Origin: a virus
Direction: 5' to 3' (one strand)
DNA length: 64,000 nt
IMG/VR virus record: IMGVR_UViG_3300029267_001213
Span: 22,554 to 86,553 of that record
Below the pieces are notes generated by a model. The model saw nothing but the letters and a program-made list of their open reading frames with translations, was not told the origin of the DNA and did not search any database. Made by a program: the position numbers and the translations under genes. This document shows positions 20,407-57,995 of the stretch, piece by piece (position 1 is the stretch's first letter; each line of letters begins with the position of its first letter).

Positions 20407-20497
20407 AAAACACGGAAAAACCAAGGAAATAGCGGCATTTATTCCGTAACTATGCGGAATCATTAGGGAACTTTCTGTCTTTTTATGTCGATTTTCC

Positions 20498-20527
20498 TTG
20501 ATACCAATATAGAATATAATTTATACT
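20498..20527 (+). promoter_or_regulatory. Sigma70-type promoter heading the early gene block
   Basis: TTGATA-N18-TATACT upstream of AAGGAGG and ATG 20549. Confidence 0.6.
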
Positions 20528-20548
20528 TAAAATAAAGGAGGCAGCACG

Positions 20549-20926: not shown

Positions 20927-20974
20927 TCAATGATGACTGCCTATCGGCAACGGTAGGCAGAGATGATTGATTAA
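20923..20974 (+). other. Long intergenic hairpin A (candidate RNase III processing site)
   Basis: TTAATCAAT/ATTGATTAA lower stem, internal loop, CTGCCTATCG-GCAA-CGGTAGGCAG upper stem. Confidence 0.65.
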
Positions 20975-20978
20975 TCAC

Positions 20979-20991
20979 TGTTCTTTGAAAT
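20979..20991 (+). promoter_or_regulatory. BoxA-like antitermination sequence
   Basis: TGTTCTTTGAAAT resembles rrn/lambda boxA (TGCTCTTTA) and sits near the start of a long operon. Confidence 0.5.
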
Positions 20992-21166
20992 GCGAATCGG
21001 AACGAAGACATCAGCTTCCAAGAAAAATGTCCCGTTCCACTTTTAACAATTCTTGGCGAGTATCAAAGCGGCCAGAAAAACTGAGGCAAAAAGTAAGACC
21101 TCTTAAACAAATCCTTACCGGATGGCGGCGATACTTTTCCTAGCCGACAGGCAAAACGGAAAGCCA

Positions 21167-21225
21167 GCTTAATTGTTGTTAGAGTGCATCATTGGTAGAT
21201 GGTGCACTCAATAGAATGATTAAGC
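21167..21225 (+). other. Long intergenic hairpin B (candidate RNase III processing site)
   Basis: GCTTAATTGTT/AATGATTAAGC lower stem and GAGTGCATCAT/ATGGTGCACTC upper stem, with G.U pairs. Confidence 0.65.
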
Positions 21226-21286
21226 GAGCAAAAAAAAACGTCCACCACCAGATCATAAAAAACAGATTAAAAAAAAGGAGGCGACC

Positions 21287-21682
21287 ATGAATAGGAAAGA
21301 AAAGAATCAAGGCATGAATTGGGTTAGGCAGTCAACAAGGTTGGCTATCTATCTCAGAGACGGACTTGCTTGTGCGTATTGCGGCGACTCATTGGAACAA
21401 GGCGCACAGCTCACGTTGGATCATTTGAAGCCGCATTCGAAAGGCGGAACGAATGAGGCGAAGAATTTAGTAACGTGTTGCCATAGGTGCAACAGTGCAC
21501 GCGGCAACAGGCCGGTGAAAACATTTTGCAAGACGGTAGCCGAGTATCTTAATCACGATGCGGATCCGGATGAGATTCTCAAGCATGTCAGGCGGACAGC
21601 TCGCAGGCAGTTACCACGGAAGGAAGCACGCAAGCTGATAAAGCGCAGAGGTTCCGTGGCGAGAGTACTGGCGAGAATGTAA
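21287..21682 (+). CDS. HNH endonuclease
   Basis: RDG..CAYCG....LTLDHLKP.SKGG.N...NLVTCC.RCN..RG motif. Confidence 0.93.
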   Translation: MNRKEKNQGMNWVRQSTRLAIYLRDGLACAYCGDSLEQGAQLTLDHLKPHSKGGTNEAKNLVTCCHRCNSARGNRPVKTFCKTVAEYLNHDADPDEILKHVRRTARRQLPRKEARKLIKRRGSVARVLARM

Positions 21683-21721
21683 GCGAATAAAAAAATGTAA
21701 ACCATAAAAAGGAGGCGAGTT

Positions 21722-22075
21722 ATGAGAATTAATTACACATGCAAAAAATGCGGTCAGATAATTCCGAAGAAAGATATTGATGAATTTCAGGATGGATTGA
21801 AATGCGGCGGTGATCCTGAATGGGATTGTATTCCTGCATGGTGTGGTGATTGTGCTGAAAAATGTTCGGCTGGCTCGGCAGAGCCGTATGATGAAATACA
21901 GGAAAAGAATCCTGTAAAATCATATTTGGCGGACATCAAATACAATGTAGATTTACTTCTGGCAGATAAGGATTTCATGGAAAACTTTGAAGACAGCGAG
22001 CATGTTGTTACGGAACTGGAGAAGGCCAGAAAGATACTTTGCAATGTATGGGATTACATTGGTGAGAGAAAATAA
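21722..22075 (+). CDS. Hypothetical protein with N-terminal Cys4 zinc site
   Basis: CKKC...CGDC. GGAGGCG RBS. Confidence 0.65.
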   Translation: MRINYTCKKCGQIIPKKDIDEFQDGLKCGGDPEWDCIPAWCGDCAEKCSAGSAEPYDEIQEKNPVKSYLADIKYNVDLLLADKDFMENFEDSEHVVTELEKARKILCNVWDYIGERK

Positions 22076-22089
22076 AGGAGATCAGAACA

Positions 22090-22284
22090 ATGAAAAAAGC
22101 AATAAAGAAAATAAAAGTTAATTCAATGGGTGAGGCGCACAAAATAGCAATGGCGGTTGCTTTTAATTCTGGCAGGACAATCGAGGCCAGAGAAATGTTC
22201 GGCTGCTTTTTAATAATAAAAAATTCAGAGACTGTTTTGGCCATAGTTGGGGTTGGTCAAAAAAGTAAAGGAGATGTACAATGA
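22090..22284 (+). CDS. Hypothetical early protein
   Basis: AAGGAG RBS, coupled to the next gene. Confidence 0.55.
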   Translation: MKKAIKKIKVNSMGEAHKIAMAVAFNSGRTIEAREMFGCFLIIKNSETVLAIVGVGQKSKGDVQ

Positions 22285-22514
22285 GTAAAATAGAAACCGA
22301 CAGAAGAGAAATACTGGACGCTATTCATGCATTGGAATACGCAAATGAAAACGATTATGCATTGGATGGCATTACAGACGAAGATGTAAAAAATTTCAGA
22401 GCTGTAGGCGGGGCAATATTTGAACTGAGAAAAAATTCTGCTGTTCGGAATTTATGCAGGAGCTTGAATCTCAGCATGGAAGACGTTCTGAACATTGCCA
22501 TAAGATTTATGTGA
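22281..22514 (+). CDS. Hypothetical early protein, paralog of the 24759-25127 N-terminus
   Basis: NENDY...GITD..V..FR..G and LNLS.E.V..IA shared with 24759-25127. Confidence 0.65.
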   Translation: MSKIETDRREILDAIHALEYANENDYALDGITDEDVKNFRAVGGAIFELRKNSAVRNLCRSLNLSMEDVLNIAIRFM

Positions 22515-22702
22515 GCGATGCAATGACAAACAGGAAAGGTAAAATAAGGAAAGTAAAAATAACCAATCAAAGGCGAGCGAAGTGTTTCTACTGCAAGCGC
22601 ACGGAACCAAGCTCAAAACGACTTCGAGAATTTGAAGCAATGCCGGACGAAGAATTCGACAGATTTTATTGCGGATGCCGGGATCCTGTTTCTAGACGAT
22701 AA
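22511..22702 (+). CDS. Small Cys-containing hypothetical protein
   Basis: AKCFYC...PSS...D.FYCGC. GTG overlapping the previous stop, or ATG 22523. Confidence 0.55.
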   Translation: MSDAMTNRKGKIRKVKITNQRRAKCFYCKRTEPSSKRLREFEAMPDEEFDRFYCGCRDPVSRR

Positions 22703-22730
22703 CCTTTTTTCAATCAGAAATAATTTTATA

Positions 22731-22798
22731 GCCAAGCGAAAGCCGGAACATTGTTTCCGGCTTGTCGGAGTGTGGCGACTCCGGCCTGATGAGCAGCC
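22731..22798 (+). ncRNA. Hammerhead ribozyme, type II permutation
   Basis: GC-GAAA (22736-22741), stem III GCCGGAA/TTCCGGC, CUU cleavage triplet (22761-22763), stem I GTCGGAGT/ACTCCGGC, CTGATGA-GC (22786-22794). Intergenic. Confidence 0.8.
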
Positions 22799-22816
22799 GA
22801 AAAAAAGAGGTGAGCT

Positions 22817-23020
22817 ATGAAAAACAAAAAGGCGAAAAAGAAACTGAATGAGGCGGAACGAGAGTACAGCAAAGTACTTCGGACATATTCCGATACGATG
22901 CTGGCCGAAACGATTGAGACGCTTGTGAGAGAGCACAAGAATCTCAGGATGAAAAAGACCATGGCAATTCATGAAGCACAGCGGCGTGGTTTTGCTGGCA
23001 TTTGCCAGTCAAAAAAATAG
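22817..23020 (+). CDS. Hypothetical early protein
   Basis: GAGGTG RBS directly after the hammerhead. Confidence 0.55.
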   Translation: MKNKKAKKKLNEAEREYSKVLRTYSDTMLAETIETLVREHKNLRMKKTMAIHEAQRRGFAGICQSKK

Positions 23021-23029
23021 GAGGCGAAA

Positions 23030-23299
23030 ATGAAGGGCAAAATTAAAATCGAATCGTTGAAGCGGTTCTTAGCAGTGAAGGTGGACGAGGCAACGTTACA
23101 ATCGGATGAGTATCGCAAAAAGGGCGAACACAAGGCGGCAGATATAGCGCATGGCCGGACGGATGCTTATGTGTATTTGTTCGATTTGTTTTTAAGAATT
23201 GATGATGCTGAGAATCCGGACAGTGATTTGAATCATCGAGTGCAGACAATATCTGCACAGATAAGGAGATTACAAAATGAAAAAGCGAAAGGGATCTAA
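23030..23299 (+). CDS. Hypothetical early protein
   Basis: GGAGGCGAAA RBS. Confidence 0.6.
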   Translation: MKGKIKIESLKRFLAVKVDEATLQSDEYRKKGEHKAADIAHGRTDAYVYLFDLFLRIDDAENPDSDLNHRVQTISAQIRRLQNEKAKGI

Positions 23300-23368
23300 T
23301 AAACCGAAGCCGATTAGCAATGAGGACGTCAAACATTGGGCGTAGCCAAATAAAAAAGAGGGTGAATC

Positions 23369-23845
23369 ATGAACATTATTAAAAAGAACAGCGGTCACAA
23401 AATAGCAATGGTCAGCCATGCGAGAGCTTGTCAGAATAAAAATAATTATGAAGATGAAAATCTTCCAAAGGACAAGGCTACTCTGGTATTTTTCCTTATG
23501 AGAAAATGGCTGGAGATTGGAAATAAAAATGCATGGATCAGAGAGAGTATGGATCCTCCATTCAATGTGGAATCATTTTGCCCGTGTTTGTCCAGAGAAG
23601 ACCTTCAAGAAAAATTCGAACATGGGAACTGGTGTCTCGGTCAGGCGTTTTATTACCTGAAGGATGGCAAGGGTTATTGCTTTATCAATCAGATCAACGG
23701 CGGTGATGAATGGCTGGTTATCAGAAACTGTATTCAGTTTGAAAGTGTGACCATGGCGGCTGTAATACGGGACGGAAAATTTGAGGACTTTCTTGACCGG
23801 ATCGAAAAGGCTACAGACAGCCAGTTAGCAAGACTGGAATACTAA
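23369..23845 (+). CDS. Hypothetical early protein
   Basis: GAGGGTG RBS. Conserved-looking HGNWCLGQAFYY...CFINQINGGDEWL segment. Confidence 0.65.
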   Translation: MNIIKKNSGHKIAMVSHARACQNKNNYEDENLPKDKATLVFFLMRKWLEIGNKNAWIRESMDPPFNVESFCPCLSREDLQEKFEHGNWCLGQAFYYLKDGKGYCFINQINGGDEWLVIRNCIQFESVTMAAVIRDGKFEDFLDRIEKATDSQLARLEY

Positions 23846-23855
23846 GGAGAGGACA

Positions 23856-24086
23856 ATGCCAAAGAAACAGAACAAGGAAAAGAAAATTCGGGAACTGGAC
23901 AAAGAGATAAGAAAGACATTCCGTGAAATTTCGGACATCGGTTACGAGCTTTTCGATCTCTCAGGCGTAACATGGCAGGAGCAGGAGATACTTGAAGAAC
24001 GGTTTAAGGACCTGCATGTAAAAAAGAACCGGTTAGTCAGAAAGTTCAAGCGTCTTACCGGGGAGGGAAAATACGATGCCTTATAA
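23856..24086 (+). CDS. Hypothetical coiled-coil protein
   Basis: AAGGAGAGG RBS. Confidence 0.55.
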   Translation: MPKKQNKEKKIRELDKEIRKTFREISDIGYELFDLSGVTWQEQEILEERFKDLHVKKNRLVRKFKRLTGEGKYDAL

Positions 24087-24567
24087 AATTGAATGGAACG
24101 GCGGAGATTATAGCAACGTGGAACACGGAAGGTTTTATTGGGATGGCGAGTGCGGTCCATGCGGAAGGCCATCTGTAAAACGCAAAGGAGGGGTGAATAA
24201 AAATATACCGATTGTGGTTGATGCGTTTCTGGATTGCAGAGGGTATTCTCCGCAGTTGATCAGGATGCAGGGGTTATCTTTCATTGCTGGTGAGATTGTA
24301 GCGAAAGCATTGCACGACAGAATATCTTTCCTGCGGTGCAGTCATCCGGCAATAGGTTATGGTCCCGGCGGCAAGAAAACATACTTCTTGGTTCATCCCG
24401 GATTGATTGATCGTTTTATGACAGTATCCGGCTGGGGTGGTCGTAATGACAAGGAGAAGGGTCGGTCGGATGCCATAGGCGAAGTGGCATTGGCGATGAT
24501 AGATTTAATTCCTTCGGCGGATGAATGCGAAAAGATGGCAGCCAGCATCAAGGAGAAAGCAAAATAA
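24076..24567 (+). CDS. Hypothetical early protein
   Basis: GGGAGGG RBS, coupled to the previous gene. Confidence 0.55.
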   Translation: MPYKIEWNGGDYSNVEHGRFYWDGECGPCGRPSVKRKGGVNKNIPIVVDAFLDCRGYSPQLIRMQGLSFIAGEIVAKALHDRISFLRCSHPAIGYGPGGKKTYFLVHPGLIDRFMTVSGWGGRNDKEKGRSDAIGEVALAMIDLIPSADECEKMAASIKEKAK

Positions 24568-24580
24568 AGAGAGGTAAGCA

Positions 24581-24766
24581 ATGGCTAAGAAATATTATCA
24601 GGTCACTTTGACAGTGACGGTCGAAGAAAATGATCTTATCGAATCAGAACTGGATGTTGAAGGATGGATATGGAATCAGCTTCATGAAGAGAATGAGTAT
24701 ATGGAACTTAATGCTATTAATGCAACAGAACATGTAAACCTTAAAAAGGAGGCGGGCTATGAATGA
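24581..24766 (+). CDS. Small acidic hypothetical protein
   Basis: GAGGT RBS. Confidence 0.55.
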   Translation: MAKKYYQVTLTVTVEENDLIESELDVEGWIWNQLHEENEYMELNAINATEHVNLKKEAGYE

Positions 24767-25127
24767 CATAAGAAAGAAACTGATGGACATGGACCGGGAA
24801 AAAATTTACAGCGCGATTCTAAAGCACGATTCAGAAAACGAGAATGATTATACTCGGGAGGGAATAACAGACCGAGAGGTGAGGATGTTTCGCATAATAG
24901 GAATGCGCGGGATGGATGCCTTGTGGGTTGACGTAAAAGATTTGGCGAAGATGTTGAATCTGTCCGGCGAGACAGTCATGTCTATAGCGGAAGAATATTT
25001 TTCAATCTGCGAAAACTGCGGCAAGCGTATTACGGAATATGATATTAAAGTTTATCGGGACGGTGTAAATCATCCGGATGGCATTCCGTCATATTGTGCA
25101 GATTGCGCGGAATTAGAATCAGCATAA
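24759..25127 (+). CDS. Hypothetical two-module protein (22281-like domain plus 21722-like zinc site)
   Basis: Similarity to two other genes in the block. GGAGGCG RBS. Confidence 0.65.
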   Translation: MNDIRKKLMDMDREKIYSAILKHDSENENDYTREGITDREVRMFRIIGMRGMDALWVDVKDLAKMLNLSGETVMSIAEEYFSICENCGKRITEYDIKVYRDGVNHPDGIPSYCADCAELESA

Positions 25128-25170
25128 ATAAAACCGTCCACCACCAGCCCCATAAAAAAGGAGAGGCAAT

Positions 25171-25368
25171 ATGGATTACAAAACAAGAACAACATTAACA
25201 GAAAACAATGAAGGCAAATGGACGGTATCTGTTCAGGCATATGATAAGACCGTCTGGACAGGCGGGTATTATCATTCTTTTGGTGAGGCTTGTGCAGCTG
25301 CCGAGCGTGCAATAGGCGACGTTTATCAAATGATTGCAAGGCGCGAAGGAGGAGAAAAAAAATGTTGA
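25171..25368 (+). CDS. Hypothetical early protein
   Basis: AAGGAGAGG RBS. Confidence 0.55.
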   Translation: MDYKTRTTLTENNEGKWTVSVQAYDKTVWTGGYYHSFGEACAAAERAIGDVYQMIARREGGEKKC

Positions 25369-25652
25369 ACCTTTCAGACAGCATGCTCAAGGAATTGAGA
25401 ATTCTCAAAAGACATTCGGACGGCAAGATGGCATTCGGCATGAAGATCAAGGATAAGCCTCCGGTGTGCAGAACTGAAATGTTACTTAGCGTAGCTAATG
25501 AATTCGTTCAAAAAGGTTATGCAACATTCATGGATATTGATAAATCCAGAGTGAAGATAACCAAGGAGGGAGAAAAGCTCGTAGAAAAATTTTTTAATCG
25601 CAAGACATACAAGGCCGATAAGCGGTTTAATTATCTGGCACAGTCCAAGTAA
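25362..25652 (+). CDS. Hypothetical protein (possible winged helix)
   Basis: ATG 25362 after AAGGAGGAG. F..KGY......VKIT.EGEK wHTH-like tail. Confidence 0.55.
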   Translation: MLNLSDSMLKELRILKRHSDGKMAFGMKIKDKPPVCRTEMLLSVANEFVQKGYATFMDIDKSRVKITKEGEKLVEKFFNRKTYKADKRFNYLAQSK

Positions 25653-25669
25653 TAAAAAGGAGGGTAACA

Positions 25670-26332
25670 ATGAACGGAACAAAAAACGCAGACAGGCCGA
25701 AGGAATTCGGACAGGTATGTGTATGGCCGGGAACGGTAGTGAAGACGGCGAGGGCTGAAGGAGACAGCGTAAAAGATTTCGAAGAGCATGTGCGAAAAGA
25801 ATTTGGCGTGCGGGTAATGTATCTTGAGGAGATTACAACAGCCCCGGACATCGAGAATGGTAAACCTGTTGAAGGCACAGGCGGAAGGAATGATTTGTTT
25901 TTCGCTGTACACAATGAGGACGTTGAAAAGTTCGCAGTGCCGAGGCTGTCGGTGGGAATCCGCTGGATAGGCGATGTCCTGTCAAAAGAAAATTATCTGA
26001 GTCCAATATATCCGGAGAGGGTATTTGAGTACGTTTTGAGAAAAGATGTGCTTACGAAATACGCGGATGATGATGGCGAAGATGATGATTGTGATTCCTA
26101 CTTCGAAGACATTGAGCGTCTGGAAGAAATCCGTGAAAGGATGCATGAGCTTCTGGAGGAGGCCGAAGAAATAGTTCGTAATTTCGAAGGCGGCGATATG
26201 GCATACCAGAGGGCGAAGAGTTACTGGCTGGCACATATCAAAACGGCATTGGACGATGAGCATGATTATCTTGGCGGTTCAATGGTAACCATGGAGGACA
26301 CTATTAACGAGATGGAGAAAGTAAACCAGTAA
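25670..26332 (+). CDS. Hypothetical protein, apparently two domains joined by an acidic linker
   Basis: GGAGGGTAAC RBS. DDDGEDDDCD linker between an alpha/beta region and a helical region. Confidence 0.65.
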   Translation: MNGTKNADRPKEFGQVCVWPGTVVKTARAEGDSVKDFEEHVRKEFGVRVMYLEEITTAPDIENGKPVEGTGGRNDLFFAVHNEDVEKFAVPRLSVGIRWIGDVLSKENYLSPIYPERVFEYVLRKDVLTKYADDDGEDDDCDSYFEDIERLEEIRERMHELLEEAEEIVRNFEGGDMAYQRAKSYWLAHIKTALDDEHDYLGGSMVTMEDTINEMEKVNQ

Positions 26333-26356
26333 AAACAGAAAGGAGTAACAGAAAGC

Positions 26357-26602
26357 ATGATTTGTGTAATGGCAAAAATCAGGAGAGGTGAGTTCACTGT
26401 AGGTGGTCAGAAATTCGAACCTGTCGAAATGAACAGGCTGTTCGATGTGCCCGTAGACAACGTGGCGACAGCAGAAAAGGAGGTAAAAAAACAGATCGAA
26501 AAAATAAATAAAACTGGACGGCAGGGAAACTACGAGTATATCGGTCCCTGTAAAATGGCAGACAGCGGTGTTCAGCCCAAAGTCAAAGCCAAGGCTGAGT
26601 AA
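26357..26602 (+). CDS. Hypothetical protein
   Basis: AAGGAG RBS. Confidence 0.55.
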   Translation: MICVMAKIRRGEFTVGGQKFEPVEMNRLFDVPVDNVATAEKEVKKQIEKINKTGRQGNYEYIGPCKMADSGVQPKVKAKAE

Positions 26603-26635
26603 CTCAAAACGAAACAGAGAAAGGAGAAGAAACAG

Positions 26636-26956
26636 ATGGCGAAAAAAACAGGAAAAGGATCAAGCAACAAAGCCCCGAGCGCAACAAATCAGGAACCCAA
26701 GACAGACCCGAAACCTCCGGCACCGAAGACAAGCGAAGTCGTTTTCGAAAAAAAGGAAACGAAGACTCTGGTGATTGAAGATGACTCCAAGAAACGGGCC
26801 ATTTTTATCAAGGAGAAAGGCGAGAGAAAATCGTTGGTCATCCTTCGTTTTGCAAAGCAGCTTTATGTCAAAATGTCGGATGAGCAGCGCAAGGAGGTCG
26901 CGGAGGCATCCCTGAATGCAGTCATAAGCTCATTCAATAAACAGGGATGGAAGTAA
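26636..26956 (+). CDS. Hypothetical basic protein
   Basis: AAGGAG RBS. Confidence 0.55.
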   Translation: MAKKTGKGSSNKAPSATNQEPKTDPKPPAPKTSEVVFEKKETKTLVIEDDSKKRAIFIKEKGERKSLVILRFAKQLYVKMSDEQRKEVAEASLNAVISSFNKQGWK

Positions 26957-26963
26957 CAGCGGT

Positions 26964-27014
26964 TTAATTACTGCTAGGGCCTACCAGCAATGGTAGGTCC
27001 ACTGGAGTAATTAA
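26964..27014 (+). other. Long intergenic hairpin C (candidate RNase III processing site)
   Basis: TTAATTACT/AGTAATTAA lower stem, GGGCCTACCA-GCAA-TGGTAGGTCC upper stem. Similar to hairpin A. Confidence 0.65.
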
Positions 27015-27039
27015 GCTCCCATAAAAGGAGGCGAAAAAA

Positions 27040-27270
27040 ATGGACGCAGGAATAGAGCTTTGTTCTTTATGTGATTATGAGCTTTATAATTTGCTGGATA
27101 GTCTCATAGCAAAAAAGCAACGGTACTACGAGATGACAGCATTGGGCAAAGACGAAAAGCTCATGGAGATGCTTCGAGATGTTTATCATCTGGATATCGA
27201 AAAAATAGATTTGGATATTCAGCGTGTCGAAGAAGAACTGGACATTCGATTTTCGGAAGAGACCTATTAA
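27040..27270 (+). CDS. Hypothetical early protein
   Basis: AAAAGGAGGCGAA RBS. Confidence 0.6.
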   Translation: MDAGIELCSLCDYELYNLLDSLIAKKQRYYEMTALGKDEKLMEMLRDVYHLDIEKIDLDIQRVEEELDIRFSEETY

Positions 27271-27285
27271 CAAAAGGAGGCGAAA

Positions 27286-27585
27286 ATGAAAAACAAAATA
27301 GCGACTAATCGGCTTCTTGATTCGGTATGGACATTAGAATACCAAGAACTGAACACGGGTGAAATAGAAATCATTTCGTATTCAAGGGATAACCCATACG
27401 GATATGATCGGGAAAGAGAAGTGCCAATGGTCAGGCTTGTTGAGGAAGACCCGAACAGGACCGTGAAGGCAGTAAGGTTTGCAGAATACGAACAATTCGG
27501 ACGTTGCACGAAGTGGGGTGAGTCTATTCCTGTTGCAAATCCAAAGCCAGTTTTTCAGTATCCATATCAGGGTCAGGTACAATGA
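27286..27585 (+). CDS. Hypothetical early protein
   Basis: AAAAGGAGGCGAA RBS. Confidence 0.6.
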   Translation: MKNKIATNRLLDSVWTLEYQELNTGEIEIISYSRDNPYGYDREREVPMVRLVEEDPNRTVKAVRFAEYEQFGRCTKWGESIPVANPKPVFQYPYQGQVQ

Positions 27586-27965
27586 AAAAAAGAAGACAAA
27601 AAAAGCCTACATTCATTGAGAGAAAGATACTGATGAAGTATCTCAATCTTAGGCGAGTAGAATGTAAGGTTAAAGAAATGTCAGCATTGCTGAATGAAAA
27701 TTATTATGAAGCTGTTATCGCAAATGCAGAACGAAAAATTGTTCATACTATCCAAAGAGAGCTGGCAACCTTTTCGAATGAACATCTGCAATCCATAACG
27801 GCACATTACATAGAAAGGGCTAATGAAGAAATAGACGTTTATACAAAAAAGCGACATAGGAAAATCGAGGAAGAAAGAAAGGCGTATTGCAAACAAAAAA
27901 GGAGGCGCGATGACGAAGAAACAGGAACCGAAAAGAAAAGCAGCCATGCTGGCAAAGTGTCATGA
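27582..27965 (+). CDS. Hypothetical basic protein
   Basis: ATGA overlap with the previous gene. Confidence 0.5.
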   Translation: MKKRRQKKPTFIERKILMKYLNLRRVECKVKEMSALLNENYYEAVIANAERKIVHTIQRELATFSNEHLQSITAHYIERANEEIDVYTKKRHRKIEEERKAYCKQKRRRDDEETGTEKKSSHAGKVS

Positions 27966-28194
27966 CTGCATGGGACATTATGCTGATGGCATGGTTGACT
28001 GCGAGAACGTTGGATGTCCTTTATATTCATGGATGCCTTACAGAGAAAAAGATGCAGACCTTGAATGGATGAAGTACAATCCAAAGCGTAAAGGTAAAGT
28101 AGTTAAGGAGAAAAAGAAACTTACTCCAGAGCAGCGTGAAATACTGAGTAAGCGCATGAAAAAGACAAGGAGAAAGTTAAAGAAAGGAAATTAG
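27910..28194 (+). CDS. Hypothetical Cys4 protein
   Basis: AKCHDCMG.Y.DG..DC....CPLY motif. GGAGGCG RBS. Confidence 0.65.
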   Translation: MTKKQEPKRKAAMLAKCHDCMGHYADGMVDCENVGCPLYSWMPYREKDADLEWMKYNPKRKGKVVKEKKKLTPEQREILSKRMKKTRRKLKKGN

Positions 28195-28197
28195 TTC

Positions 28198-28608
28198 ATG
28201 GCACCGAAGAGACAGCCCAAGCGATTCAAAAAAAGAGAGCGCATGAAAAAAGGCATGGAGCTGCGGCGTCTGGCTCAGGATGCGGTAAGTAAGATTGACG
28301 AAACGGCACAAGTTCAGTGGGGGTGGGATCAAGGACATATGCTGATAGTAATATTTAAGCGCAGGGATATACTTGATGAAGCAAAAAAACATGCATCAGT
28401 CGGATGCAAGCCCGGGCACTACAGCGTACCAATGGCTACAGATTTCATTCATAAGAAAGAAACTGAGGCGAAGGATGAGCTGAAAAAAGCAATCAGGACT
28501 GCCATTGGCAAAGATACTCCGGTAGCGATACATGCATATAATCGGGCTTATGAAGATGTGCTCGGCGTTAAACATGTAGGAGGAGGCGATGTCAGGAATA
28601 TTAAATGA
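28198..28608 (+). CDS. Hypothetical protein
   Basis: ORF in operon order. Confidence 0.5.
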   Translation: MAPKRQPKRFKKRERMKKGMELRRLAQDAVSKIDETAQVQWGWDQGHMLIVIFKRRDILDEAKKHASVGCKPGHYSVPMATDFIHKKETEAKDELKKAIRTAIGKDTPVAIHAYNRAYEDVLGVKHVGGGDVRNIK

Positions 28609-28933
28609 TGTTCTGGACAGATGTTATGGATACGGTGGACCACTACTGAGCAGCGACCGTGAGGCAATTCAGGAATACGTCAGGCAGCCAAGCGAGGAAG
28701 GATGGAACAGAATAAAGGATGTCGTGGTCAATCCTAATTACGGACTGGGACTGAGTGTTGAAAATGCTCTGGTCGGATGGATGCTAAATCTGGATGCTTC
28801 TGTCTTTTCAAGAGAGAACATGCGTCAGCAAATTATCAATCGAAGGATTCAGCCACCCAGCGGATTCAATCTGGTGCAAGCTTTAAAATTCGTAACAGCA
28901 AGGTATGAAAAACAGAAAGGCAATCGGGCGTAG
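28589..28933 (+). CDS. Hypothetical protein, last gene of the early block
   Basis: GGAGGAGGCG RBS. Confidence 0.55.
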   Translation: MSGILNDVLDRCYGYGGPLLSSDREAIQEYVRQPSEEGWNRIKDVVVNPNYGLGLSVENALVGWMLNLDASVFSRENMRQQIINRRIQPPSGFNLVQALKFVTARYEKQKGNRA

Positions 28934-28941
28934 CCAGTGAT

Positions 28942-29050
28942 TTTCCTTTCCGGCATACAGCCGATAGAACCAGATAATGCGGACAGGGTTTTAAGATTCG
29001 CCTCTTTTTTACCTGTTTGTGGTTCTGTCGGTTGTATGCTGGGAAGGAAA
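28942..29050 (+). ncRNA. Long G.U-rich RNA hairpin, candidate antisense sRNA
   Basis: 31 bp outer stem (28942-28972 with 29020-29050) whose four non-Watson-Crick pairs are all G.U, plus an 8 bp inner stem. Apex contains TTCGCCTCTTTTTT. Confidence 0.65.
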
Positions 29051-29269
29051 GCGCAATTAAGCAGCGATACTTCAGTGAATGAACAAGGGTTAAGCATACG
29101 ACATTAAAAAAGAAACCGGCTACAAAATGATACATAAAGAAAGGGGTGATATACCTAAGACAACAGCGACGCGGACTTCTTTAATAAAATTGGATAGATA
29201 ACTTTTCTATGAGCAAACTTTTTCAAGAAAGATACTAAGTGCTATTAAAAGTATGGAGCCGGTATTGTT

Positions 29270-29374
29270 GCATGGTTCGGTAATGATTTCATGCGGGTAG
29301 GTTCCCTATGAAGAAAAACGGCGTTTTGAAAACGCATGGTTCAGTAATGATTTCAGCCGGATAGGTTTTGTATG
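29270..29374. repeat. Two imperfect direct repeats, 64 bp period
   Basis: GCATGGTTCGGTAATGATTTCATGCGGGTAGGTT (29270-29303) and GCATGGTTCAGTAATGATTTCAGCCGGATAGGTT (29334-29367), each followed by NNNTATG. Confidence 0.8.
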
Positions 29375-29645
29375 GCGACAACATACAAATAGAATGATCT
29401 TCTTTCTTTACCGGTACCTAATACTGCAGCATTATTTTTGCATTATGGCTGTACATCATACAGCAATTTTATATAATGCGTAGTACCTTAGTACATAGTA
29501 AATCTTACGTTCTATTATTTTGATTGATTGAATATGAAGACGAATTGTCTTTAATCAAATTTATTAAAAGGCAATGTATTGAATCAACAGGTAATTTAAT
29601 TACCTTAAAAAACTGGAAAAAGAACCAGAGAAAGGAAAGGGTAAC

Positions 29646-30812
29646 ATGGACAGAGAGAGAATCGCTTTTAATAATCTGGCGAAGGAACTGAAGACGGCAT
29701 ATCTCGAGCGCGGAGAGCTGGTTGATCAGGTATTGGCATGTCTGGTCAGTGGGAAGCATATCTTCCTGCTGGGCCCTCCCGGTACAGCGAAGTCGAGCCT
29801 TTTGAAAGCGGTATGTAATTCAATGGAGGACTCAAGATATTTTTCGTGGCTACTTACGCGGTACACGACTCCGGAGGAACTGTTCGGACCGCCGTCAATC
29901 GAAGGCCTAAAGAACGACAGATTCGAAAGAGTAACAAAGGGAAAGCTTCCGGAGGCGGATCTGGCATTCATTGATGAGATATGGAAGGCCAGCAGTTCAA
30001 TAATAAATACCTTACTCACTATCATGAACGAGCGCGAGTTTTACAACAATGGTGGTGGTAAGCCGATGCAGTGCCCGTTAAAATTCTTGGCGGCTGCATC
30101 AAACGAAATGCCGGCGGATGATGAGCTTCAAGCGATGTACGACAGATTTCTGGTGAGGACGGTTGTGCAGCCTGTAGTTTCTGAATCAGCGACAAGAGCT
30201 TTGCTTACGCAGGATGATCCTCAGAAAATGATAAAAGAAAAAATCACTGCGAAGATTCTGAAAAAAGCTATGGACACAGCCAGCAAGGTCAATGTGCTGG
30301 ACGATACTGTGGACACGGTGATTAAGATTCGTAAGACTCTCAAGGCGGACGAAGGCATTGTTGCCAGTGACAGAAGATGGAAAGAAATCTTTTCATTCCT
30401 GAAAGCGGTTGCATGGCTGAGCGGAGATGATGAGGTCATCCCGGAACATCTGTCAGCTACTGTGGACTGCTTATGGGAACAGCCGGATCAGCGTAATACA
30501 GTTGCAAGCGTTGTAGGCAAGATTTCTTCTCCGGCAGTTGCTGAAGCGCGTGAGCTTCTGGATGCGGCCAAGGACGAAGCCAAGAAGGCACTTGAGGCTG
30601 CGAACAATTCGGATGCTGGCAATAATCCCGAGATGCTTTCACAGCTCGGAAAGGCGAACAGTCGTCTGGACAAGAGTGTGAAACAGGTTCAGGCGTTGTA
30701 TAACAAGACAAAAAGCAAGGCGTCGATGGAAAAGATAAAAGCCATTTCGGAAGAACTTTCAGGACTCTGCAATGAAGTGAAGGAGACGGCGCGGAAGACT
30801 CTGAAAATATAA
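29646..30812 (+). CDS. MoxR-family AAA+ ATPase, RavA-like
   Basis: Walker A GPPGTAKS, LLTRYTTPEELFGP, Walker B FIDEIWKA, NTLLTIMNER, ASNE.P, DRF and SDRRW motifs. Confidence 0.93.
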   Translation: MDRERIAFNNLAKELKTAYLERGELVDQVLACLVSGKHIFLLGPPGTAKSSLLKAVCNSMEDSRYFSWLLTRYTTPEELFGPPSIEGLKNDRFERVTKGKLPEADLAFIDEIWKASSSIINTLLTIMNEREFYNNGGGKPMQCPLKFLAAASNEMPADDELQAMYDRFLVRTVVQPVVSESATRALLTQDDPQKMIKEKITAKILKKAMDTASKVNVLDDTVDTVIKIRKTLKADEGIVASDRRWKEIFSFLKAVAWLSGDDEVIPEHLSATVDCLWEQPDQRNTVASVVGKISSPAVAEARELLDAAKDEAKKALEAANNSDAGNNPEMLSQLGKANSRLDKSVKQVQALYNKTKSKASMEKIKAISEELSGLCNEVKETARKTLKI

Positions 30813-30822
30813 GGAGGGTGCT

Positions 30823-32451
30823 ATGGTGATCGATAAGAAATTTTTCGATGACAATGAAGCGCCGGCAGTCAAGAAAGAAGTCATCAAGGAAAGTGTGCGC
30901 GGTCCTGATTTGAAGATGGACATGCCGAGAAATAGCTGGGAGAGAGTGCAGTGGGAAAAGTTCCTGAATGATACGGAAGGCAATGAAGTACCGGATGGAC
31001 TGGATCCACGAGGGATGAACAAAGAAAAAAACGAACAGATGGTCAGTCCTACGTGGCCGGGCTTTTCCCGGGAATTGTTTTCCCGGCTGTTGAATGCAGA
31101 TCAGGTTGAATGGAAAAAAGAACCAAGTCCAGAACATGCATGGGCCGATCTTGCACATAAGTCAGCGGACGAAGTGCGGGAATGGGATAATCTTCAGCGG
31201 CGATGCTACGATGATGAGACGTGGTCGGCTATGGCGGCATTGAGCATTGCAAGTTCTGTGAAGGAAGTGGTTATCGGCATTGCGACTACTGAAGATTTAC
31301 AACAGGAACGAGAACAGGCTGCAGGACTTCAGGCTCTTGCTCAGTGGATGCAGAATCAGGCAGACAAAGAACAGGATCCTGCGAGACAGCAACAGCAACA
31401 GGAGAAGGCGGACAATCTCAACCAGCAAGTTGAAGACCTTATGAATCAGATTCAGCAAAAGGAACGACAGGCACAACAGCAGGCGAGTCAGGTAGATCCT
31501 TCTACGATGAGACAGGCGGTGCGTGCGGGTATTAATCAAGCACAGAATCGAATTGAAGAAACTGAGCGAGCGATGTCCATGCTTGGGGCAGGTAAGGATC
31601 CGGGCAAGCTTCAGCGTTCTGGCGGTTCGCAATTGAAGACAGCTCTTGCCAAGAAAATCATGGAGAGCGAAAAGCTTAGACAGATAGCGAAACAGGCTGG
31701 ACGACTTAGAACCACTGCATTGAGAAAGGCCAGAACAAAATGCAAGACCGGCCGGTCTGAATATTACGGCGTGGAGCTTGGTGATGACATCGGACGGATG
31801 TTGCCGAGTGAATTGATCAAGCTTGTTGATCCGGCGCTGGAGAGTCTTTTTTATCGGGGACTTCATGAAAAGTCTTTGTCTCAGTATCGAGTGCGGTCAA
31901 GGGAGCGTGAGAATCGCGGACCGATAGTTGTGGCGATTGATACATCCGGATCCATGTACGGAGATAAGGAAGTGTGGTCGAAGGCGGTTGCCTTGGCATT
32001 GATTTCCGTAGCGATGGAACAGAAGCGACCGTGGGGTGTAATGTTGTGGGATACTTCACTTCAGGACACGGTTTTATCTGCAGACGGAATGGCACGGCCT
32101 GAACAAATGATGGAATGGCTTGAGGCGTTTTCAGGAGGCGGTACACATATGGATGTACCTTTGAGAGAATCCATGCGGATGATTAATGAATGTAAGGAGC
32201 TGAGAAAGGCGGACGTGATTCTTATCACGGATGGTTGTGCGAACATTTCAAAAAGTGTTCAGGAAAAATATCTGAAAGCTTCCGAAGAAAACGGATGGTC
32301 AACGTTCGGCGTGCAAATCGGTGGCGGATGGGAATCAGGTCTTGAACTGCTGGCAGATATTTGCGGCAAGCAAAATGTACACGAGATAAGCGATATGCTT
32401 TCGCGTGAAGATGAGGACAGAATTCTGGAGCGAATAGTTCCGGGCAATTAA
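30823..32451 (+). CDS. vWA-domain protein, ViaA-like
   Basis: G.DIGRMLPSEL, GPIVVAIDTSGSM.G (MIDAS), GGGT and ADVILITDG motifs. Confidence 0.92.
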   Translation: MVIDKKFFDDNEAPAVKKEVIKESVRGPDLKMDMPRNSWERVQWEKFLNDTEGNEVPDGLDPRGMNKEKNEQMVSPTWPGFSRELFSRLLNADQVEWKKEPSPEHAWADLAHKSADEVREWDNLQRRCYDDETWSAMAALSIASSVKEVVIGIATTEDLQQEREQAAGLQALAQWMQNQADKEQDPARQQQQQEKADNLNQQVEDLMNQIQQKERQAQQQASQVDPSTMRQAVRAGINQAQNRIEETERAMSMLGAGKDPGKLQRSGGSQLKTALAKKIMESEKLRQIAKQAGRLRTTALRKARTKCKTGRSEYYGVELGDDIGRMLPSELIKLVDPALESLFYRGLHEKSLSQYRVRSRERENRGPIVVAIDTSGSMYGDKEVWSKAVALALISVAMEQKRPWGVMLWDTSLQDTVLSADGMARPEQMMEWLEAFSGGGTHMDVPLRESMRMINECKELRKADVILITDGCANISKSVQEKYLKASEENGWSTFGVQIGGGWESGLELLADICGKQNVHEISDMLSREDEDRILERIVPGN

Positions 32452-32472
32452 AAAAAAGAAAGGGGTAACAAA

Positions 32473-33405
32473 ATGAACATGAGAAATTTATCAGCAAAAG
32501 GGAGAGTGGATGCAATCGTAAAGGCGGTAGAATTTGATGGAGCACTACTTGGACATATTGTCTGGTGGACTCTCAGGGAGGCGGAAGTGGATTGCGATGC
32601 TCTGAAAAAAGCGATGGAAGATGCTGGCATTGATTCTGAACAGCTCGGCATAAAAGAACCGAGCGCCAAGCGTATTTTAGGCCGTGCAGTAGGGAAGCTT
32701 TCGATAGAGCTTTCATCCAAAGAACGAAGGAATGGATCAACGTATCTTTTCAGGCCGGTACCTCTCGAAGACAGGACAGCAGCGTTTGCTATTGTATCCG
32801 AGAAGGAAAAGACAACTTCTGAAAAAGTGGAGAAGCTGATTCACAAGACTGTGGATGTCGTATCTGTGGACAAGGAAGGAGAGATATACAGCGAAAAGAA
32901 TCATGATACGGCAGACAAGCTGATAGAAAAATATAAGCGTCTGAAAGGCAAACTGGCTCCACCGGAAGTCAGAGCCGCTATGATGCAGCTCATGGTCAGT
33001 TGGGATTCTTTCCGGCTCAGAGACGGAGGGGGAATATATTTTGTTCCGGCTGGATTCGACAAGGAGCTGGCAGCATTGAAGGTCGCGGTAGAGTCCGTTG
33101 GTGCGTCGGTGTTTTATATCGTGCCGGTACCGGATGTGGCGGGAGCAAGAGAAGGTATAGCCAGTGCAGCCAAAGGAAGTCTGGAATCAGAACTTGCAGC
33201 TATCCAGCAGGAGATGGAAAAATTTGACGACAGCACCAGAATGAAAACACTGGAAAGCAGAATCGGGACACTTCAGGATGTACTGCGAAAGGCCCAGTTA
33301 TATAATGATGCGCTTGGCATGGCACAGTCTGACGTTAAGCGCATGGTTAGAAAATTGCAGACAAAAATTGAAGCGATTGTATTGGGCAGAGAAGATGCAG
33401 CATAA
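32473..33405 (+). CDS. DUF6744/DUF3150-like protein associated with MoxR-vWA
   Basis: LG.IVWW.L and LR.GGGIYFVP motifs, C-terminal coiled coil. Confidence 0.6.
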   Translation: MNMRNLSAKGRVDAIVKAVEFDGALLGHIVWWTLREAEVDCDALKKAMEDAGIDSEQLGIKEPSAKRILGRAVGKLSIELSSKERRNGSTYLFRPVPLEDRTAAFAIVSEKEKTTSEKVEKLIHKTVDVVSVDKEGEIYSEKNHDTADKLIEKYKRLKGKLAPPEVRAAMMQLMVSWDSFRLRDGGGIYFVPAGFDKELAALKVAVESVGASVFYIVPVPDVAGAREGIASAAKGSLESELAAIQQEMEKFDDSTRMKTLESRIGTLQDVLRKAQLYNDALGMAQSDVKRMVRKLQTKIEAIVLGREDAA

Positions 33406-33429
33406 TATTAGCGATAGTAAATAATATGA

Positions 33430-33459
33430 TTGACAGCATAATAATATTTCCTTAATAAT
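33430..33459 (+). promoter_or_regulatory. Sigma70-type promoter candidate
   Basis: TTGACA then AATAAT at 18 nt spacing, upstream of the HTH gene. Confidence 0.45.
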
Positions 33460-33494
33460 GCAGATTGTGAAGAGGCGAGAGAGGAGCATGTCGT

Positions 33495-33881
33495 ATGAGC
33501 AATTCTAAAAACATAAGGACGGCAAAGCTGAATCGCAAACAGGCTATCAGCAAACGGAAGGTGAAGCTGAACAAAACACGCCCGGGCATTATTATTGATA
33601 AGGACAAGTTATATCAGCGAGTATGTGAGATAGCGGATGAGCGCGGAGTAACACTGGCGGACCTTGCAAGAGATGCTGGTGTTACTCCGGCATGGTTGAA
33701 TACAGCTTTGACCAGCAAGTCGGGAATGACTCTGGACACTCTGGCAGTGTTTGCTCACATATGCAAAACGAAGCCGGGAAAATTATGCGATGAGTTTGCA
33801 GAGATAGTCCCATTAAAGAGAGGAAGGAATGACAAAAAGAAAAAGAGCCAGACAAAGACGGCAGTATCTATCTCAAAGTAG
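33495..33881 (+). CDS. XRE/Cro-type HTH regulator
   Basis: RGVTLADLARDAGVTPAWLN......MTLDTL helix-turn-helix. Confidence 0.8.
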   Translation: MSNSKNIRTAKLNRKQAISKRKVKLNKTRPGIIIDKDKLYQRVCEIADERGVTLADLARDAGVTPAWLNTALTSKSGMTLDTLAVFAHICKTKPGKLCDEFAEIVPLKRGRNDKKKKSQTKTAVSISK

Positions 33882-35211
33882 TGCTGGTGATTTCGGTTCC
33901 TGTCCGAGAAAATTTTATTACTCTCGGATATTGGGATTGAGCCTTCGTCCTGAACATCAGCCTTTATACTTGGACGAAGGTAAGTTGTGGCATGAGCTTT
34001 TGGACAGGAGTATTTACGGTGAAGTGAAAAGACTTTGTCAGGACATGCCGAAGGCTATAAGCATTCAGGATGCTGTAGATGAATGGACGAAGGAACACAT
34101 CAGACAACTTGAGGAGAGACAAAAGAATCAGCAATTCGATTTCGTTTCGGATTCGGTAACTGTTGAACAGATTGAGGACAAGGCTCGCATGTGGATTGAC
34201 ATTGCCAATAGATACCGGGACAAATATTTGCAAAAGGACATTGAGAATTATCAATTGCTGGGTACGGAAGTTAAATTTCGTTTTCCTTTAAGAGTACCTT
34301 GCAACAAGTGCAATGGCGAGACTCTGATGGATGGGCCTTACTGCGGTAAATGTTCCGGTACGGGTCTCGGTCGCAAGTCACCGAAGTGGGATGCAATGGG
34401 CATCATAGACCGCATTGTACGCGAGCGAAAAACGAATCGAGTTCTGGTTATCGAAAGCAAGACAACGGGGGATACTCCAGTAGGATATATGACTGGTGCA
34501 TGGTCCCGGGCACAGTCCCGGCTTTACCTGTTGGGTGCGGAACACTGGTTGAAGGAGCAAGGCGTTGATTCTACAGCGGACGGCATCATATATGATGTAG
34601 TCAGAAAGAAAGTTCCTTCGGTTCCGAAGATGACTCAGTGCAGGACTTGTAAGAGTACCGGCGAGATGGATAAGCCTACGTTGGAGCGATATGCAAAGCG
34701 CATGAAGAAAAAGAATCCTGCGAAGGCGTTATTTGCGGAGGGACAATTGCAGAGCATGGGAGAATCTGATTCAGCACCTTGTCCGGAATGCGAAGGTACT
34801 GGAGTGGGCGGTATAAGTCGTGCGGCGTGTGATACTACGGTAGATGTTTTTCGAGCTACGGTTGAAAAATATCCACATATCAAGGAAGCGGAATATCTGG
34901 AAACACTGCTTAAGCTGGAGCAGGTTGGGGATGTGCGATTTATGAACAGAGAGGAGTTTTTTGTCGAGCGCAAAAAACAGTATGAGTGGATGCTGGATGC
35001 ATATTTCAAAGCGAGAGAAATTGATACCATGCGGTACTGGTATCGAAACGAGTCAGCTTGTGACCGGCCTTTTCCTTGTGCATTTTCAAGACTCTGCATT
35101 GATGGCGGCGAAGGTGCCATGGATTACTACTGGACACGAGACGAAAAGGAAGAGCAGGAGCGTGAAGAACAGGAACGGCAGCAAGCTGCCAATGAAGATC
35201 CATTTTTATAA
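33829..35211 (+). CDS. PD-(D/E)XK exonuclease (Cas4/RecB-like) with two zinc-finger insertions
   Basis: S.S....F..CPRKFYY, G..WHE, E.KF, GIIDRI...VIESKT, Q..LY and C-terminal C....C....LC motifs. Two CxxC...CxxCxGxG inserts. Confidence 0.85.
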   Translation: MTKRKRARQRRQYLSQSSAGDFGSCPRKFYYSRILGLSLRPEHQPLYLDEGKLWHELLDRSIYGEVKRLCQDMPKAISIQDAVDEWTKEHIRQLEERQKNQQFDFVSDSVTVEQIEDKARMWIDIANRYRDKYLQKDIENYQLLGTEVKFRFPLRVPCNKCNGETLMDGPYCGKCSGTGLGRKSPKWDAMGIIDRIVRERKTNRVLVIESKTTGDTPVGYMTGAWSRAQSRLYLLGAEHWLKEQGVDSTADGIIYDVVRKKVPSVPKMTQCRTCKSTGEMDKPTLERYAKRMKKKNPAKALFAEGQLQSMGESDSAPCPECEGTGVGGISRAACDTTVDVFRATVEKYPHIKEAEYLETLLKLEQVGDVRFMNREEFFVERKKQYEWMLDAYFKAREIDTMRYWYRNESACDRPFPCAFSRLCIDGGEGAMDYYWTRDEKEEQEREEQERQQAANEDPFL

Positions 35212-36127: not shown

Positions 36128-36664
36128 ATGTCAGAGAAAGGCACATGGAAGCCGGGAGAATCATTTGATCCGACAAAAGAGTATGGCGAAGGTGGAGGAG
36201 GTATTCCCGATCCGGATAAATATTTTGCCATGGTAAGCGGTGTCGAGGTTGGAGAAAGCAGCAATCATAATCCTCAGATCGTTGTGAGTCTTCGGCTCAT
36301 TCAGGGCAGTAAAACAAAGGGACAGTTCAGAGGAACGAGATTCAGAGACTGGCTAGTGCTTACAGAAAATTCAATCTGGCGATTGGAAAATCTGTGCAAG
36401 GCTATCGGACTTACTGAAAGTTTCGATCCTACGGATGCCGAAGTTGTTAATGAGCTTTTTTATCAGAAAATTCTGTATGCCAATGTGGGCAAGGACGGTG
36501 ACAAGACGAGAGTAGTTAAGCCGTTTTTCGAACAGGCCAGCAAGGAGGACCAGAAAAGGTTCAAGCAATTTGAAGTTCCTGAAGACTGGGATGATAGGTC
36601 TTTCGAGTTTCCGAGCGAAGAAGAGTCTGAAGAAAGTAGCGAAGCAGATCCGTTTGCGAGCTAA
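36128..36664 (+). CDS. Single-stranded DNA-binding protein (DUF669-like)
   Basis: P...Y.A.V..VE...S...NP.I, WRL..LCKA.G motifs. Acidic tail ending DPFAS. Confidence 0.75.
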   Translation: MSEKGTWKPGESFDPTKEYGEGGGGIPDPDKYFAMVSGVEVGESSNHNPQIVVSLRLIQGSKTKGQFRGTRFRDWLVLTENSIWRLENLCKAIGLTESFDPTDAEVVNELFYQKILYANVGKDGDKTRVVKPFFEQASKEDQKRFKQFEVPEDWDDRSFEFPSEEESEESSEADPFAS

Positions 36665-57981: not shown

Positions 57982-57995
57982 CTGAGAAAGTGAAT

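Follow-up and report, generated by a model that had tools for sequence, protein, structure and literature searches.

A long plus-strand RNA hairpin in a phage genome, with a loop complementary to the ribosome-binding motif of the small-gene block that it follows

Early genes of phages are known to be shut off by proteins, such as RegB and RegA of T4, and by promoter switching. We describe here a long RNA hairpin in the IMG/VR virus record IMGVR_UViG_3300029267_001213, which lies directly behind a block of small, probably early genes and carries at its tip a sequence complementary to the ribosome sites of these genes; we tentatively consider it to be a regulator of this gene class. The record has 86,553 bases and was judged 78% complete. 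The stretch that we analysed (the window) comprises its bases 22554-86553, i.e., 64,000 nt, and positions given below are those of the window.

Several described systems share parts of this arrangement. The SAS/ESAS motifs of cluster K mycobacteriophages are asymmetric, join a Shine-Dalgarno core to conserved positions that are unable to pair with 16S rRNA, and are found 3-7 nt upstream of some, but not all, non-structural gene starts; four of the six phages described also carry one copy, and one only, in reverse orientation, and the 2011 paper described the motifs with function unknown and left open whether their reader is an RNA or a protein (PMC3203893). In Staphylococcus aureus, the motif UCCCCUG in the 3' untranslated region (UTR) of the icaR mRNA pairs with the Shine-Dalgarno sequence of the same mRNA, blocks initiation and makes a substrate of RNase III (PMC3868564). 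CJnc190 of Campylobacter jejuni is matured by RNase III from an intramolecular duplex and represses a G-rich ribosome site (bioRxiv 10.1101/2021.03.19.434396), and the c4 antisense RNA of phages P1 and P7 is cut from the transcript of its own operon and, by antisense pairing, keeps the expression of downstream genes low (PMC8198154, PMC3858429). Class-wide inactivation of early mRNAs at Shine-Dalgarno regions is carried out in T4 by the RegB endoribonuclease, for which bases 3' of GGAG give specificity (PMC3014915). Long hairpins between or after cistrons, in the early RNA of T7 and T3 and in lambda sib, are cut by host RNase III, and this sets mRNA ends and stability (PMC5371410); the bacterial enzyme accommodates about 22 bp (PMC6212723).

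The properties that we computed for the present hairpin are its structure, strand, uniqueness, loop accessibility, complementarity and block specificity. The first-pass annotation, made from the letters alone, had placed a 31-bp stem with four wobbles and an inner stem of 8 bp directly after the last gene of the block. Its location proved correct (stop codon at 28931-28933, hairpin from 28937), and 28942-28972 matches 29020-29050 over 31 nt with 87% Watson-Crick pairs and four G.T; the inner stem is present too, but has 9 bp rather than the 8 bp claimed. RNAfold, which had been suggested as a check, gives the plus strand of 28930-29070 a stable fold of -70.5 kcal/mol, whereas shuffled sequences have a mean of -34.7 (standard deviation 3.6; z -9.86) and none of 200 shuffles folds as well. 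The weak AAGA/UCUU pairing that had been suspected at the apex is also a part of the predicted fold. When 120-nt segments taken every 15 nt were folded over both strands of the whole 86.5 kb record, the segment at the hairpin was the most stable of the record on either strand (-65.6, the plus-strand mean being -26.2 with standard deviation 6.3). Two further runs, each from a different study, have Logan contigs, X5 (covering 28691-29003) and X6 (28965-29151), that read the hairpin with 0 differences, and it is therefore not an assembly fold-back. We also considered a dispersed repeat or miniature inverted-repeat element and rejected it, as BLAST against the whole record returned the hairpin and its own arms only; matches of the arms to the start region of the ATPase gene are short two-copy matches and were treated as chance.

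The structure is a feature of the RNA of the plus strand, as had been proposed. All pairs that depart from Watson-Crick pairing (9/9) are G.U on the plus strand and become A.C mismatches on the minus strand, and the minus strand of 28930-29070 folds to -47.0 kcal/mol (z -4.85), 23 kcal/mol weaker than the plus strand. In the 120-nt scan, the plus-minus energy gap is 22 kcal/mol at the hairpin against a genome mean of 6.2, the plus strand being G- and A-rich. According to our arithmetic, drift at the DNA level gives G.T on the plus strand in about one third of substitutions (if transitions are assumed to amount to two thirds and to be strand-neutral), and nine of nine by such drift alone is very unlikely. 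These results bear on the view that the locus acts as DNA, namely as the cruciform-forming inverted repeat of a replication origin or of a recombination or packaging site. It does lie at the edge of an AT-richer spacer of 591 nt with a 48-nt direct repeat, just upstream of replication genes, but a cruciform gains nothing from deviations that are all G.T in the plus sense with no A.C or transversion among them, and the record holds a single copy of the hairpin. The nine of nine G.U pairs and the strand energy gap thus argue against a DNA-level element despite the neighbouring repeat, and we regard it as very improbable.

Many ribosome sites of the small-gene block share a motif of their own. 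GGAGGCG occurs 19 times on the plus strand and never on the minus strand, and eight of the copies stand 0-6 nt before block starts; these are the eight genes named in the first-pass annotation, each of which is indeed preceded by the motif. The core GGAGG is followed by CG at 8/12 block sites and at 3/31 sites elsewhere (Fisher p 4e-4). The longer form AAAGGAGGCGA, with at most one mismatch, has nine copies in the window against 1.9 expected, a number that 0/100 shuffles reached; seven of them coincide with ribosome sites of the block, another stands at 39490, and the sole minus-strand copy in the window is the apex of the hairpin. GGCGAA is an extension, specific to the block, on the 3' side of the Shine-Dalgarno core, whereas the structural genes (upstream of the window) favour GGAGGTA or GGAGGAA and several replication and later genes have GGAGGGT(AAC). 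As a separate observation, AAGGAGGGTAAC or AAGGAGGGTAAT stands before four genes of the later part, the motif being at 25659, 35213, 36118 and 55851 (+).

The apex is accessible in the predicted fold, since opening of 28997-29009 costs 3.7 kcal/mol, and UUCG of its hexaloop would fit the YUNR loop motif. With pyrimidines at 17 of its 24 positions, it belongs to the top 0.5% of plus-strand windows, the strand as a whole being 58.6% purine. CCTC has 38 copies on the plus strand against 397 on the minus strand, and TCGCCTC has a single copy on the plus strand of the whole 86.5 kb record, which is the one at the apex. We looked for a second anti-ribosome-site element among the CCTC sites: 9/38 plus-strand copies are outside predicted genes of at least 60 aa, and the one complementary to GGAGGTA (genome side, -2882) appeared to be coding sequence missed by the gene caller, so that this candidate was dropped. 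The predicted pairing of 28997-29009 with AAAAGGAGGCGAA before genes 27040 and 27286 was recovered by BLAST (27035-27023 and 27284-27272; 13 nt, 92%), with 13 pairs each. Duplexes at the other six sites had been called shorter, and this was an undercount for 21287 (13 pairs) and 21722 (17+5 pairs). The energies of the eight apex duplexes range from -16.6 to -24.6 kcal/mol, values that leave out what it costs to open either partner.

Against the eight GGAGGCG sites, windows at the apex take ranks 1-9 of 43,265 plus-strand windows, and the mean of the apex with these sites, -19.2, was reached by 0/5000 of its shuffles (shuffle mean -9.0, best -18.5). This test used sites first picked for matching the apex, which reduces its weight as support for an antisense role, and it was therefore repeated with all 22 block starts bearing a Shine-Dalgarno sequence, chosen by position. 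Among the 1487 plus-strand windows with at least 15/24 pyrimidines, the apex windows rank 1-6 for these 22 sites (mean -15.0, against -14.3 for the next locus), and when pairing with non-block sites is subtracted they rank 1-9 (-4.9 kcal/mol, the next locus having -2.3). For non-block sites, none of them is found among the 12 best of the same windows. When 128 starts were ranked by their pairing with the apex, ten of the best 12 were in the block, the block mean being -14.5 against -9.5 elsewhere (Mann-Whitney p 8e-6). The apex is accordingly complementary, beyond what composition gives, to an extended ribosome-binding motif specific to the small-gene block, in agreement with the annotation from which we started. 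That the strongest hairpin, its only open loop, the most block-specific antisense sequence and a position behind its own block should coincide by accident appears unlikely from the sequence, though this is an argument from a single genome.

The main alternative is a plain structural RNA that has no antisense role: it could be a site for processing by RNase III, shield the 3' end from exonucleases, or close the small-gene operon as an unconventional terminator, comparable to the RNase III sites between cistrons of T7 early RNA or to lambda sib. The match of the loop would then simply follow from a loop rich in U and C facing leaders rich in A and G. We regard this alternative as a serious possibility, if a somewhat doubtful one. 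A long mismatch-free duplex directly after the last stop codon is what it would lead us to expect, and RNase III sites have long been established in lambda, T7 and T3 (PMC5371410). Other long hairpins of the same block, at 20920-21240 (z -7.1), have no anti-ribosome-site loop, and long hairpins here thus need no antisense role. In addition, the apex is surpassed as a generic anti-Shine-Dalgarno word over 124 sites: when exact Watson-Crick 6- to 8-mers are counted, CTCCTT-type words elsewhere match more sites, and when G.U is allowed a plain U-run ties with the apex on a crude count of 10-pair matches. All three observations also count against the antisense proposal. On the other hand, composition fails to explain the match, as the aforementioned shuffles of the apex indicate; the apex is the most block-specific complement among the 1487 pyrimidine-rich windows; and the hexaloop complements exactly the block-specific GGCGAA and not the generic core. 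The terminator version is further weakened by the lack of a U-tract, the stem being followed by GGAAGGAAAGCGCAAUUAAGC, and the locus is absent from our scan for intrinsic terminators.

Table 1. Coordinates of the hairpin, of the genes and signals around it, and of its candidate target sites (window positions)
Feature	Position	Strand	Remark
Sigma-70-like promoter match (10/12) before first block gene	20498..20527	+	transcription of the unit presumably begins here
Candidate target: ribosome site of gene 21287 (HNH endonuclease)	21274..21284	+	13 pairs, -18.9 kcal/mol
Candidate target: ribosome site of gene 21722	21708..21718	+	17 contiguous pairs + 5 pairs across start codon, -24.6 kcal/mol
Candidate target: ribosome site of gene 23030	23017..23027	+	-16.6 kcal/mol
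Candidate target: ribosome site of gene 24759	24745..24755	+	-20.2 kcal/mol
Candidate target: ribosome site of gene 27040	27024..27034	+	13 pairs, -18.5 kcal/mol
Candidate target: ribosome site of gene 27286	27273..27283	+	13 pairs, -18.6 kcal/mol
Candidate target: ribosome site of gene 27910	27898..27908	+	-17.1 kcal/mol
Candidate target: GGAGGCG directly before gene 28589, which the hairpin follows	28582..28588	+	-19.1 kcal/mol
Last gene of small-gene block, 114 aa	28589..28933	+	no family, no homologue
Stop codon TAG of last block gene	28931-28933	+	hairpin starts 4 nt later
Whole RNA hairpin	28937..29054	+	47 pairs, 9 of them G.U, zero mismatch
Basal pairs, 3 bp	28937-39 with 29052-54	+	RNAfold pair table
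Lower stem, 5' arm, 31 bp including 5 G.U	28941..28971	+	pyrimidine-rich base (UUUUCCUUUCC)
One-sided 7-nt bulge between stems	28972..28978	+	unpaired probability 0.64 at 28972, 0.98-1.0 at 28973-28978
Upper stem, 5' arm, 9 bp including 3 G.U	28979..28987	+	pairs with 29012-29020
Apical 24 nt	28988..29011	+	5+5 U-rich internal loop, weak 4-bp AAGA/UCUU helix, hexaloop
Hexaloop UUCGCC	28997-29002	+	unpaired probability 1.0
Anti-ribosome-site sequence UUCGCCUCUUUUU	28997..29009	+	hexaloop part complements GGCGAA
Upper stem, 3' arm	29012..29020	+	pairs with 28979-28987
Lower stem, 3' arm	29021..29051	+	pairs with 28941-28971
Non-coding spacer, 591 nt, from hairpin to ATPase gene	29055..29645	+	AT-richer; promoter-like site at 29450-29477

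The reading that we favour, tentatively and with not quite even confidence, is that the hairpin forms the 3' tail of the operon RNA, where RNase III probably cuts it, and that its loop blocks the ribosome sites of the block. Here we infer transcription, cleavage, pairing in vivo, repression and timing in the following form. The transcript of the small-gene block (about 20.5-28.9 kb), probably an early operon, would end in the hairpin as its 3' tail, and host RNase III would probably cut the 31-bp mismatch-free lower stem, which is longer than the ~22 bp that the enzyme accommodates. The cut would separate the operon from the downstream sequence, and the compact upper stem-loop would be released or left. 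Its open hexaloop UUCGCC could nucleate on GGCGAA, the private extension that marks at least eight block genes, whereupon the AAGA/UCUU helix would open (3.7 kcal/mol) and pairing would spread over the Shine-Dalgarno core and the A-tract, giving duplexes of 12-17 contiguous pairs at about -17 to -25 kcal/mol. Such pairing would hide the ribosome site and create new double-stranded substrates of RNase III. Being made together with its targets and likely outliving them, the RNA may bring about a delayed self-shut-off of the gene class, acting in trans if it is a processed small RNA, or in cis if the 3' UTR folds back. The first-pass annotation had inferred a phage small RNA that would stop translation of this class of early mRNAs as an early-to-middle switch. 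A broader claim is that one temporal class of genes bears a private tag, GCGA(A), immediately 3' of its Shine-Dalgarno cores, and that a single hairpin reader encoded at the end of the operon, cut by RNase III in a manner resembling a pre-microRNA, times the shut-off of the whole class; this seems to us rather unlikely.

Several features of the predicted fold suit this antisense proposal. With its 31-bp and 9-bp stems and no mismatch, the modelled duplex is long enough for an RNase III substrate (~22 bp or more), and, as in anti-Shine-Dalgarno small RNAs, an unpaired C/U-rich loop complementary to ribosome sites is predicted. The hairpin that carries the motif starts on the same strand, 4 nt past the last stop codon, and if a single transcript is made the motif would stand on the same mRNA as its sites, as in the icaR arrangement. 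To the three points against an antisense role that were given with the plain structural RNA, and to the choice of sites in the eight-site test, others have to be added. In the collections searched, no phage relative was found from which conservation or covariation could be judged, and among the nine runs holding the phage there is no RNA run and thus no transcript evidence. In the 78%-complete phage record no gene for RNase III or a dsRBD protein was found, and the presence of RNase III in the host is an assumption. An RNA made 1:1 with a transcript that carries at least eight targets would have to accumulate before it could shut them off. Finally, start sites were taken from a simple custom gene caller, which mis-called at least one region.

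The position immediately behind a stop codon also raises the idea of a recoding signal, in which the hairpin would promote read-through of the TAG at 28931-33 into the in-frame stretch 28934-29107 and so lengthen the last protein. The frame past the TAG is open for 57 codons (an ORF, i.e., open reading frame, with a GVT start at 28937-29107 is in this frame), and the structure stands directly after the stop codon. By our arithmetic, however, an open stretch of that length in one given frame has a chance of about 7%, (61/64)^56; the 56-aa extension matches no PHROG with E up to 1; TAG is an ordinary stop, used by 22/105 predicted genes of at least 80 aa; and the stretch has no ribosome site or coding signature. 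We consider read-through extremely improbable, more so than a DNA-level element.

Comparison with catalogued RNAs gave no family for the hairpin. In a search of the whole window with Rfam 15, only the transfer-messenger RNA (tmRNA), a tRNA and a type II hammerhead were found, and in 28800-29700 with E up to 10 there were only chance pre-miRNA-like matches of at most 20.5 bits against cut-offs of 93-100; the hairpin is therefore not a member of any catalogued RNA family. This includes the c4 antisense RNA, which we take to be Rfam RF01695: besides the lack of an Rfam match, ARAGORN finds only tRNA-Met and tmRNA, both far off. The tRNA-Met is a phage gene followed directly by the tmRNA gene at 57910-58303 (+); the tmRNA scores 136 bits and has the tag peptide ANQQKALAA. 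The tmRNA holds, at 58187, TTCTCCTT, the plus-strand 8-mer whose complement is present in more start sites than that of any other (9/124). The type II hammerhead ribozyme is within the small-gene block, at 22734-22802 (+) (Rfam RF02276, 54.9 bits against a cut-off of 37). A search for a RegB homologue found none, but its control search gave no match either, so that it is uninformative.

Relatives of the phage were sought with several probes. Neither megablast nor blastn found a match among 50,697 phage records, and the apex 18-mer had no match in viral contigs. Related-locus searches of viral contigs found one locus with the ATPase (39% identity, with a different gene order) and nothing with the 114-aa protein, the terminase or the primase-helicase, and a terminase search of genome contigs also found nothing. 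A metagenome scan with an ATPase alignment returned 80 loci, which we do not count as phage relatives because their identity is 35-47% and many are on large cellular contigs. In tblastn searches of the terminase and primase against cultured phages, identity was at most 26.6% among the matches listed, and this gives no host clue. The 114-aa protein had no homologue but itself among 5.8 billion proteins and is encoded on four other contigs. The same phage (27000-31000) was found in runs labelled as sediment or seawater metagenomes from seven studies, of 2018 and 2021. The contig pieces compared in full have 0 to 1 differing letters each, and contigs of four DNA runs are identical over the hairpin stretch where they cover it; this four-run comparison is one of low-depth contigs with no variants, and four of the phage-holding runs may be the record's own source.

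As to the surroundings, all sizeable ORFs are on the plus strand, with a GC skew that stays between +0.16 and +0.28 throughout. The block upstream of the hairpin comprises about 25 small genes (20549-28933); one of the ten scanned, the HNH endonuclease gene at 21287, has a Pfam family at or above the cut-off, and the last four have no PHROG match. Downstream follow genes for an AAA-type ATPase, an exonuclease, a Sak4-like annealing protein, a replication initiator and a primase-helicase, and later for the terminase and portal. The hairpin sits at the boundary between the small-gene block and the replication module, and the block can reasonably be taken as early from its gene content and position. 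The promoter match presumed to start the transcription unit has to be read against the 23 sigma-70-like matches found in 19000-34000, where 23.0 are expected from shuffles, i.e., no excess. The best match of that region (33430-33459, 11/12) is in 33400-33830 (+), which also has a 16-bp hairpin near 33640 and resembles a small helix-turn-helix ORF absent from the custom gene calls. In the spacer before the ATPase gene, the 48-nt direct repeat occupies 29270-29317 and 29334-29381 (+); the copies are 79% alike with their first 22 nt near-identical, and there are two matches in the window (0.00 expected) and no others. It is a candidate operator or iteron pair.

Some other structures and repeats may be recorded here. 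The runner-up independent locus of the stability scan is 36695-36810 (+), with -55.6 (at 36698) against -29.6 on the minus strand, and lies at the 5' end of the replication-initiator ORF 36664-37542. Between the first block gene and the HNH gene, 20900-21290 (+) is a highly structured non-coding region (z -7.1). The 13-mer CGTCCACCACCAG has two copies, at 21239-21251 and 25135-25147 (+), against 0.02 expected, both about 25-35 nt before gene starts of the block, and GTAAACC(A/T)TAAAAAGGAGGCG is common to the leaders of 21722 and 24759. These shared leader sequences suggest reused junction cassettes.

If the antisense proposal is true, early genes would be shut off in a different and very economical way, by an RNA that recognises the ribosome-site extension peculiar to a gene class and that provides, from the 3' end of the operon, a feedback with its own timing. 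Shared start-associated motifs would thereby acquire a meaning that can be tested, and synthetic biology could gain a compact, orthogonal translational off-switch. If the hairpin serves only in processing, it still dominates the RNA structures of an orphan phage lineage and marks where two transcription units meet.

With regard to the known systems, a limited literature search found no paper on a hairpin RNA of a phage that is directed against a ribosome site common to a gene class. Further systems in this context are T7 gene 1.2 with R1.3, DicF and the C-rich loops of staphylococcal small RNAs. In RNase III sites of T7, internal loops limit cutting to one strand; the hairpins at 20920-20977 and ~21165-21240 (+) of our phage have such internal loops, whereas the stem described here runs through 31 bp without a break and bears an antisense motif in its loop. 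The proposed mode of action resembles that of known anti-Shine-Dalgarno regulators and might be regarded as a variant of these. The likeness to icaR, as far as its source describes it, is a C/U-rich 3' untranslated motif directed to the Shine-Dalgarno region of what is proposed to be the same transcript; icaR has one gene and one site, whereas the phage motif is on the tip of a 40-bp hairpin and would face, in a polycistronic setting, at least eight sites with a private extension. CJnc190 shares the cutting of an intramolecular duplex by RNase III, as proposed for the phage hairpin, and differs, in the account cited, in being a bacterial RNA that is transcribed from promoters of its own, has one characterised target and is opposed by a cis-encoded antagonist; the two are unrelated in sequence. 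The c4 RNA is described as lying upstream of its target, tRNA-like, matured by RNase P and acting in immunity via ant, with no gene class addressed. RegB, according to its source, is a protein nuclease aided by ribosomal protein S1, whereas the proposed phage reader is an RNA. Each step of the proposed mechanism has a precedent in CJnc190, icaR, c4 or RegB.

The closest architectural parallel is the SAS of cluster K. The likeness is in architecture alone, namely in the marking of some non-structural genes together with one reverse copy, as the SAS consensus GGGATAGGAGCCC (13 bp) is unlike the phage motif AAAGGAGGCGA. Furthermore, the SAS phages have a mycobacterial host, and their reverse copy is not placed in a hairpin loop by the source, whereas that of the present phage caps the strongest hairpin of the genome. 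If the combination of a tag and a hairpin reader were general, it would explain both the SAS motifs of the cluster K mycobacteriophages and their single reverse copies.

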